A stretch of 38,273 nt of DNA. It comes from a virus. Taxonomy: Duplodnaviria; Heunggongvirae; Uroviricota; Caudoviricetes. Positions within the stretch are counted from its first letter, which is position 1. The number at the start of each line of letters is the position of its first letter. Positions 26,406 to 26,720 of the stretch are shown one piece after another. The notes beneath the pieces were generated by a model. That model made no database searches. It was not told where the DNA came from and saw nothing but the letters and a program-made list of their open reading frames with translations. A program made the translations under genes and the position numbers. The stretch covers positions 1 through 38,273 of the IMG/VR virus record IMGVR_UViG_2639762987_000013, one strand, 5' to 3'.

Positions 26406-26427
26406 GGGAGCTTCGGCTCCCTTTTTT
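26406..26427 (+). terminator. Intrinsic terminator just after coat gene (GGGAGC-TTCG-GCTCCC + TTTTTT)
   Basis: Perfect 6-bp stem, tetraloop, T6. Confidence 0.6.
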
Positions 26428-26441
26428 ATCTGGAGACAAGC

Positions 26442-26720
26442 ATGACACACATGATCTTTCGTCATGGCGACATGAAGAAATGGAAAGGCGTTGGATACGA
26501 CTTTGAAATCGTGAAAGCCGAAGAGCTTCAGGAATATCTGGATGCTGGCTGGTTTGCACATCCTGATAATCTTCTGAATGATGTTGCAGAGCCAGAGCCA
26601 GAGCCAGAGCCAGAGCCAGAGCCAGAGCCAGAGCCAGAGCCAGAGCCAGAAGAAAAACAGCGTAAAAAGCCTGATCGAAAACCTAAGGCGGCAGCAGATG
26701 AACCTGACAACGAAGGGTGA
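26442..26720 (+). CDS. Small protein with (EP)10 linker and basic C-terminal tail, 92 aa
   Basis: ATG 26442 with GGAG RBS directly after coat terminator; contains perfect hexanucleotide repeat. Confidence 0.5.
26589..26648. repeat. Perfect tandem hexanucleotide repeat (GAGCCA)x10
   Basis: Read directly; encodes (EP)10 in the ORF frame. Confidence 0.95.

Follow-up and report, generated by a model that had tools for sequence, protein, structure and literature searches.

A Frame-Preserving Hexanucleotide Repeat of Variable Length in a Small Late Gene of P22-Like Prophages

Introduction

The Caudoviricetes sequence IMGVR_UViG_2639762987_000013, all 38,273 nt of which were analyzed here and are referred to as the window, contains a small open reading frame (ORF) between the genes for a P22-type major coat protein and the head-tail adaptor gp4. 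Within this ORF lies a perfect array of ten GAGCCA units, located on the plus strand at positions 26589–26648 and encoding ten consecutive Glu-Pro dipeptides, (EP)10. An uninterrupted microsatellite in the structural module of a phage raises the question of whether the array is an unstable element of a genuine gene and, if so, what its changing length may mean for the encoded protein. The initial annotation, made from the sequence alone, suggested recent or ongoing slipped-strand change and considered a capsid decoration protein, a nucleic acid-binding protein, or an unrelated moron as possible identities of the gene product. The comparisons reported here indicate that the array is an in-frame hexanucleotide variable-number tandem repeat (VNTR) in the linker of a conserved late gene homologous to P22 ORF69, that its length is probably driven by slippage, and that the variable segment is probably a tolerated, disordered spacer.

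Results and Discussion

Copy Number of the Array Among Relatives

The array is the strongest tandem repeat in the 38-kb window, where Tandem Repeats Finder (TRF) reports it at 26587–26650 with a period of 6, 10.7 copies, 100% matches, and a score of 128; its position and ten units, as first annotated, are exact by both sequence read-out and TRF. The longest perfect period-6 run spans 64 nt, while the runner-up in the window spans 14 nt. As a chance control, the window was shuffled 200 times with its dinucleotide composition preserved, and the longest perfect period-6 run in the shuffled sequences averaged 13.6 nt and never exceeded 16 nt. Chance does not account for the array, which has the long, perfect, head-to-tail form, far beyond random expectation, of a slippage-prone coding VNTR.

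Comparison of copy number across relatives, which the initial annotation had proposed as a check, revealed 1–24 units rather than an invariant length. The locus is present in 217 of 5,426 complete Escherichia coli genomes, and a sample of 48 evenly spaced full-length matches from these genomes covers the entire range, with a median of 5 units and the longest array (24 units) in E. coli GPEC1446. As 17% of this sample has at least 10 units, the array of the window is long but not extreme. A second set of 80 IMG/VR loci, which is biased towards short arrays by the 2-unit query, has 1–15 units. Cultured phages also vary in this respect, with 8 units in IME10 and APC_JM3.2, 6 in Dewey, 5 in Louie and HZ41, and 2 in Bas106; the lengths of the corresponding matches (369, 357, 351, and 333 bp) agree with 8, 6, 5, and 2 units, respectively. 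Only the GenBank record of APC_JM3.2 marks a “repeat_region” at this position. The genome announcement of APC_JM3.2 does not mention the repeat, and no published description of this VNTR was found in the searchable literature.

All arrays of at least 8 units consist of pure GAGCCA, including the 10- to 24-unit arrays of the RefSeq E. coli collection. In short arrays, the run is frequently broken by GATCCA (DP), GAGTCA (ES), GAGACA (ET), GAGCAA (EQ), or the synonymous GAGCCG, and most of the interruptions are non-synonymous (DP, ES, ET, EQ, and EL). Variant units have been copied as well, as seen in the (GAGTCA)4(GAGCCA)2 array of locus L082 and in the SEPELEPE-type higher-order units of some proteins. 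Copy number changes by whole units, and the overlap with gene 4 downstream is preserved. Because the unit is 6 nt long and all 90 alleles examined retain both the frame and the tail, the locus undergoes length variation and not the on/off phase variation that results from frame shifts or altered promoter spacing. The expectation that slippage would change the length of the linker without shifting the frame was thus supported from 1 to 24 units.

Copy number turns over faster than point substitutions accumulate in the flanking sequence, which was compared over 2,856 nt of non-repeat sequence (coat, N-terminal domain, tail, and gp4–gp10). Loci L026 and L037 have no flank differences but have 3 and 4 units, respectively. 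A single flank difference separates L009 from L038 (2 and 4 units) and L030 from L042 (9 and 11 units). The window itself, with 10 units, is closest to L042 (11 units), L030 (9 units), and L029 (8 units), from which it differs at 6–8 flank positions, and to the prophages of E. coli IR53017 (L090, 18 units) and MS14385 (L091, 15 units), from which it differs at 6 positions each; it differs at 21 positions from L047 (15 units). Overall, pairs with 0–8 flank differences differ by 1–8 units, which is the whole-unit polymorphism that characterizes a VNTR. Long pure arrays are also found in divergent backgrounds, with 97–1,667 flank differences from the window, and therefore point to repeated origin or to spread by recombination.

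The comparison of assembled sequences supports ongoing slippage, as array length differs even between near-identical prophages and every long array is pure; the suspicion of recent slipped-strand change raised by the ten perfect copies is thereby upheld. MutS-dependent mismatch repair in E. coli handles loops of up to ~4 nt, and 6-nt loops escape it. The instability of the hexamer array may thus arise from replication slippage that leaves 6-nt loops beyond the reach of MutS repair.

Two further observations concern the database records of this locus. Several proteins labeled “partial” stop at the start of the array, as is evident from the sequences of P0147 and P0149 and from the 48-aa length and “partial” label of P0156, P0167, and P0168. 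This suggests that short-read and draft assemblies break at the locus, which the microsatellite explains, and short-read data probably miss some of the long alleles. The 24-unit prophage of GPEC1446 (NZ_CM142773.1) carries a gene annotated as “HNH endonuclease signature motif containing protein” (positions 1–149 of locus L004) on the opposite strand, directly upstream of the coat gene and at the place where other loci have the end of the scaffolding gene. This may be a case of homing endonuclease insertion into the structural module.

Homology to P22 ORF69

Profile matching, gene position, and shared motifs identify the window gene as the homologue of P22 ORF69 in the E. coli lineage. Its 92-aa product matches phrog_1175 (“unknown function”) with an E-value of 3e-31, with residues 1–90 aligned to positions 1–72 of the 72-position profile, and P22 ORF69 and Sf101 gp06 match the same profile at 4.5e-31 and 9.2e-29, respectively. 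Downstream of the coat terminator, the gene fills the slot that separates the coat gene from gene 4, and alignments show conservation of the N-terminal domain residues M1, G9, G36, W37, and P41 followed by a basic tail. The window protein and P22 ORF69 have in common an N-terminal domain of ~45 aa, with G36 and W37 invariant, and a basic tail of the RKPKA type, the P22 protein ending in KPRKGRKPKAVSDADKD. In P22, and also in Sf101 gp06, the end of the gene overlaps the start of gene 4. The linker of P22 ORF69, by contrast, is short, acidic, and non-repetitive (PVEADDVKP), without any microsatellite.

The same coat–X–gp4 slot is found in P22, Sf6, HK620, Sf101, phage L, and Klebsiella prophages. 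Slot homologues occur in P22-like phages that infect Salmonella, Shigella, and Klebsiella, with clear homologues in Klebsiella prophages. Close to the window protein are 282 protein clusters, all named “hypothetical”, from E. coli, E. albertii, E. fergusonii, E. marmotae, and Salmonella; in a library clustered at 50% identity, only approximately 10 of the clusters matched genuinely belong to the family. Searches of the 92-aa protein against Pfam and NCBIfam returned compositional matches only (PARP/procyclin and the EP region of TonB), which were far below the cut-offs.

The small ORF is a real gene under purifying selection, and its N-terminal domain is as constrained as gp4. Among 83 loci, codons 1–48 have a synonymous polymorphism (pS) of 0.150, a non-synonymous polymorphism (pN) of 0.010, and a pN/pS ratio of 0.067, while the ratio for gp4 is 0.059. 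The proposal that the gene could be an unrelated moron does not agree with these results. A moron is expected to have its own promoter and terminator and to be present sporadically, whereas this gene is found in a conserved slot, has sequence homology to P22 ORF69, and overlaps gp4, and no promoter-like site was found in the region 25900–27300.

Two other versions of the slot were compared with the window gene. An enlarged version occurs in phage L and ST64T (orf186; phrog_3769) and in some E. coli prophages, where an inserted WDGH domain (PF25311, E = 6e-40) separates a related N-terminal domain from the common EP/tail end. The protein of this type in E. coli strain A3 is 199 aa long. The WDGH alleles lie at positions 1562–2161 of locus L003 (E. 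coli A3) and 157–717 of locus L089 (phage L orf186). In a large protein search, the WDGH domain was found elsewhere only as a stand-alone protein of ~110–130 aa or in this same scaffold, with no partner domains and no functional clue, and literature searches found no papers on the “WDGH domain” and nothing relevant on orf69 of P22. The other version is gene 6 of Sf6 and hkbT of HK620 (phrog_3251), which share the slot, the coat terminator, the overlap with the gene 4 homologue, and a KRGRKAAD-type tail, but are assigned to another PHROG and do not match the window protein significantly at the sequence level. They could be homologous to it at a distance or analogous in position alone.

Organization of the Locus

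The features of the locus are listed in Table 1. The coat gene ends with a stop codon at 26395–26397, which is followed by a terminator-like hairpin with a predicted RNA folding energy of -18 kcal/mol (z = -2.46) that was also found by a terminator scan; a terminator is annotated at the equivalent position in the records of Sf6, HK620, and phage L. The initial reading of the small ORF as starting after this terminator with a GGAG ribosome-binding site of its own is exact in its coordinates, and the division into N-terminal domain, EP linker, and basic tail is borne out by the alignment with P22 ORF69 and by an AlphaFold2 (AF2) model. The gp4 gene begins at an ATG that is colinear with the start of P22 gene 4, and its first 23 nt are shared, in a different frame, with the 3' end of the small ORF.

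Table 1. Features of the locus between the coat and gp4 genes, with window positions.
Feature	Position (nt)	Strand	Evidence
P22-type major coat protein gene	25102–26397	+	PF11651, E = 1.7e-165; phrog_283, phrog_22632
Intrinsic terminator-like hairpin, “t coat”	26403–26428 (stem-loop 26403–26424 plus T-run)	+	AGAGGGAGC-TTCG-GCTCCCTTT, then T-run
GGAG ribosome-binding site	26432–26435	+	6 nt upstream of ATG; direct sequence reading
Small gene, 92 codons, P22 ORF69 homologue	26442–26720	+	phrog_1175, E = 3e-31; ATG at 26442, TGA at 26718–26720
N-terminal domain, codons 1–48	26442–26585	+	Predicted strand-strand-helix, then conserved G-W-x-x-H-P motif
(GAGCCA)x10 VNTR	26589–26648	+	TRF, shuffle control, copy-number variation, AF2 predicted local distance difference test (pLDDT) <50
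C-terminal tail, 23 aa, basic cluster then acidic end	26649–26717	+	Lineage alignment
TAAGG Shine-Dalgarno-like site of gp4, inside tail P-K-A codons (dual coding)	26684–26688	+	Sequence
gp4 head-tail adaptor (“packaged DNA stabilization”) gene	26698–27198	+	PF11650, E = 2.6e-58; phrog_637

The tail is nearly invariant within the lineage, being identical in 74 of 90 alleles, and the window has the minority PDRKPK allele. A basic cluster is also present in the tails of P22 ORF69 and Sf6 gp6. The P-K-A codons of the tail read CCTAAGGCG and contain TAAGG. The sequence CCTAAGGCGG, which is found at 26684–26692 in the window, at 687–696 in the P22 locus (L085), and at 2689–2698 in a Klebsiella locus (L100), is conserved at the DNA level and doubles as P-K-A codons and as the Shine-Dalgarno sequence of gp4. 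One Klebsiella homologue without the gp4 overlap also lacks RKPKA.

The GAGCCA repeat contains no stop codon in any forward frame. Upstream of its ATG, the gp4 frame (26578–26697) is open through the array, where it reads (SQ)10 from an ATG at 26578 or 26581, and it is kept open in nearly all of the 90 related loci, which is probably meaningless. A longer gp4 whose N-terminal extension includes a variable SQ tract is conceivable on formal grounds but was rejected as unsupported, as there is no Shine-Dalgarno sequence, the repeat is free of stop codons in all forward frames, and the gp4 start is colinear with that of P22. A reverse-strand ORF of 224 aa (WLWL...) that overlaps both the coat gene and gp4 was rejected as spurious.

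Origin and Tolerance of the Variable Linker

Homologues without the GAGCCA array suggest how the linker may have arisen. In Klebsiella homologues, the linker is PDPEPEPE or AEPEPEP and is encoded by (GAGCCT)2-3, with a different proline codon, and other homologues have EP- or DP-rich linkers. Together with PVEADDVKP in P22, these sequences suggest that a short acidic, proline-rich linker is probably ancestral and has been maintained at the protein level. Such a linker would have seeded the array, and the GAGCCA version of the E. coli lineage would then have passed the threshold for slippage. Changes in length may be tolerated as the EP segment would serve as a spacer, disordered or extended, that connects the folded N-terminal domain to the basic tail; if each residue of an extended chain adds ~0.3 nm, the reach of this spacer would vary from ~0.6 to 15 nm.

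Predicted Structure and Functional Leads

An AF2 run with a 20-sequence alignment predicted strands at residues 2–8 and 19–25 and a helix at residues 26–34, with 10-residue block-mean pLDDT values of 66–87 over residues 1–40. Almost all of residues 48–92, which comprise the EP array and the tail, had a pLDDT below 50, and the linker and tail, amounting to half of the protein, are accordingly predicted to be disordered. Foldseek searches with this model found no match in the PDB with an E-value below 3.8 and only weak similarity in BFVD, to other small uncharacterized phage proteins.

Sequence searches of the N-terminal domain provided a different type of lead. In a HMMER (phmmer) search of 1.84 billion proteins with the 48-aa domain as the query, residues ~12–39 matched a module that is repeated 3–7 times in other proteins (E = 4.5e-7 to 1e-3) and has the pattern W-I-N-N-G ... 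K-x-I ... E-L-Q-x-Y-L-D-x-G-W-x-x-G. Several of the multi-repeat proteins carry GIY-YIG, SegE-type, or HNH nuclease domains together with NUMOD3 motifs. Single units of this module of phage homing endonucleases match the strand, helix, and GW of the N-terminal domain, and hmmsearch recovered such matches unit by unit. A profile comparison with hhalign gave a probability of 96% over 21 columns, which is partly circular as the units were selected with the N-terminal domain profile. No Pfam model for the repeat module was found. The window protein differs from the homing endonucleases in having a single copy of the module, and Pfam detected no nuclease domain in its 92 aa. In homing endonucleases, such repeats fill the non-catalytic part of the protein, which is usually the DNA-binding region. 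By analogy, the N-terminal domain may be a single DNA-contacting module, a proposal that draws on its resemblance to the homing endonuclease module and on the basic character of the tail. Of the functions considered in the initial annotation, nucleic acid binding is the best lead, although it is an unproven one.

The basic tail was also compared with the AT-hook, which has an R-G-R-P core flanked by basic residues. The window protein has KKPDRKPKA and most relatives have KKPGRKPKA, neither of which is an AT-hook. The distant homologue P0137 has an AT-hook-like KRRGRPPKA, which is a resemblance only. Overall, the product is probably a small, non-essential late protein that is translated alongside gp4 and combines a folded N-terminal domain, a disordered acidic spacer, and a basic end, with the microsatellite altering the spacer alone. 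At its most speculative, the protein could be a non-essential, DNA-contacting accessory factor of head completion that is translated together with gp4.

Alternative Explanations

Several points weigh against the interpretation of the array as a slippage-driven VNTR in a tolerated spacer of a possibly DNA-contacting protein. Slippage is deduced by comparing assemblies, and some of the database copy numbers could be assembly errors, although the long arrays examined come from RefSeq assemblies labeled as complete genomes. The neutrality of linker length is an assumption. Conservation of the tail is due in part to the embedded Shine-Dalgarno sequence and start codon of gp4 and not to the function of the protein. 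Moreover, the match to the homing endonuclease module spans only ~21–27 residues, and DNA binding by the module is assumed from its position. The AT-hook-like core is broken in the window protein, where the sequence PDRKPK lacks the glycine. Finally, the phage L paper (G3 2021, jkaa037) describes orf186 as “detailed function unknown”.

Rather than being tolerated, length variation may be adaptive, with the EP array acting as a hypermutable ruler under diversifying or fluctuating selection on the reach between the N-terminal domain and the tail, for instance to suit a variety of partners or hosts. Such tuning is consistent with the great diversity of copy number (1–24 units) and its fast turnover, the presence of long pure arrays in several divergent backgrounds, the expansion of variant units such as (GAGTCA)4 in L082, and the retention of an EP-rich linker at the protein level in Klebsiella relatives through different codons. 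However, the distribution of copy number is broad, has a single peak, and leans towards short arrays (median 5), the shape expected from simple stepwise mutation, the mostly non-synonymous interruptions suggest weak constraint on the sequence of the linker, and P22 and other homologues function without any array. For these reasons, we infer that the variation in length is tolerated rather than selected and consider adaptive tuning unlikely.

It is improbable that the protein is a component of the virion, such as a decoration or structural protein whose N-terminal domain sits on the capsid or portal with the EP segment facing outward. The gene is inside the structural module between coat and gp4, and the RefSeq record of Sf101 names the homologue a “virion structural protein”, but the Sf101 paper gives no experimental basis for this label. 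The phage L paper has points on both sides, as its mass spectrometry of the virion lists 22 phage proteins, of which 9 are not named in the text, while the known P22 virion components are listed there without orf186 being named. The UAB_Phi20 paper contains no proteomics.

Structural data also argue against a place in the virion, in particular against an ordered, stoichiometric decoration protein. The virions of P22 and Sf6 have been solved by cryo-electron microscopy, and PDB sequence searches with P22 ORF69, Sf6 gp6, and the WDGH variant found no match, so that P22 ORF69 and Sf6 gp6 are in no deposited virion model. Sequence and fold searches, including Foldseek against the PDB and BFVD, likewise revealed no fold shared with known decoration proteins of the Dec, gpD, or Soc type. 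With half of the protein predicted to be disordered, the capsid decoration role envisaged in the initial annotation is disfavored.

There is a similarly small likelihood that the two functional ideas hold jointly, i.e., that the protein is a DNA-contacting head-completion factor made together with gp4 and composed of one homing-type module and a basic tail, and that the EP array is a hypermutable “ruler” that sets the reach between these two parts in the E. coli lineage and is maintained by fluctuating selection as a length-variable contingency locus in a virion-assembly operon.

Very unlikely, in our view, is a role in cis, in which the ORF would be a translated leader that carries ribosomes past the terminator region to the start of gp4 by translational coupling, the peptide being largely dispensable. 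The N-terminal domain is under purifying selection as strong as that of gp4 (pN/pS 0.067) and is conserved across genera, gp4 has a Shine-Dalgarno sequence of its own, and one Klebsiella homologue lacks the gp4 overlap. These observations outweigh the 23-nt overlap with gp4, the presence of a gene 4 overlap also in P22, Sf6, HK620, and Sf101, and the location of the gp4 Shine-Dalgarno sequence within tail codons that are conserved as DNA in P22 and Klebsiella, which a cis-acting leader would explain. An assembly error in the array, or a spurious ORF with a repeat that acts at the DNA level only, is effectively refuted by the recurrence of many array lengths in independent RefSeq complete-genome assemblies and cultured phages, and by the ribosome-binding site, strong purifying selection, and homologues across genera, even though several “partial” database proteins end exactly at the array, where short-read assemblies appear to break.

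Comparison With Known Repeats

The repeat is of a known kind, a coding VNTR, and not a new type of system. Coding VNTRs and microsatellites, including hexanucleotide loci used for multiple-locus VNTR analysis (MLVA) typing, are known from enterobacteria. The window locus shares with them a perfect short-unit array, stepwise changes between close strains, and a frame-keeping unit whose length is a multiple of three, but differs from them in lying within a P22-like prophage, in a gene of the structural module. A parallel at the protein level is the (EP)n-(KP)n spacer of TonB, in which an EP run is likewise followed by a Lys/Pro-rich basic segment and to which all of the NCBIfam matches pointed. 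EP/KP segments of the TonB type are extended, rigid spacers. Homology to TonB was rejected, as the match scored 20.7 bits against a cut-off of 315, was confined to the EP/KP region, and is compositional only; the transmembrane anchor and C-terminal domain of TonB are absent from the window protein.

The locus provides a clean natural case of a microsatellite that evolves fast yet preserves the frame of a gene in a phage structural module, and it could be used as a marker to follow closely related E. coli prophages of the P22 type at high resolution. In addition, a nameless ORF is now tied to P22 ORF69, an uncharacterized small gene of a classic model phage, and the family gains two leads in the resemblance of the N-terminal domain to a homing endonuclease module and in a linker that tolerates 2 to 48 residues.

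Two other repetitive regions were observed in the window. A degenerate period-6/18 repeat (GCTTCT, 63% matches) at 6001–6084 is located in the minus-strand ORF 5628–6596, which encodes a 322-aa early-region protein, and the repeat encodes a long segment rich in Glu, Ala, Lys, and Arg (AEAEAKAKAEIEAAARREAEAKAAAERAERER...) that is probably a coiled coil. Downstream of gp10, the ORF at 28514–29569 contains repeated heptad-like units of the form ADHE(T/S)RI(A/T)AAE, which fit a tail-needle coiled coil of the P22 gp26 type. The GTG listed as the start of this ORF falls ~100 nt before the end of gp10, and the true start probably lies further downstream.

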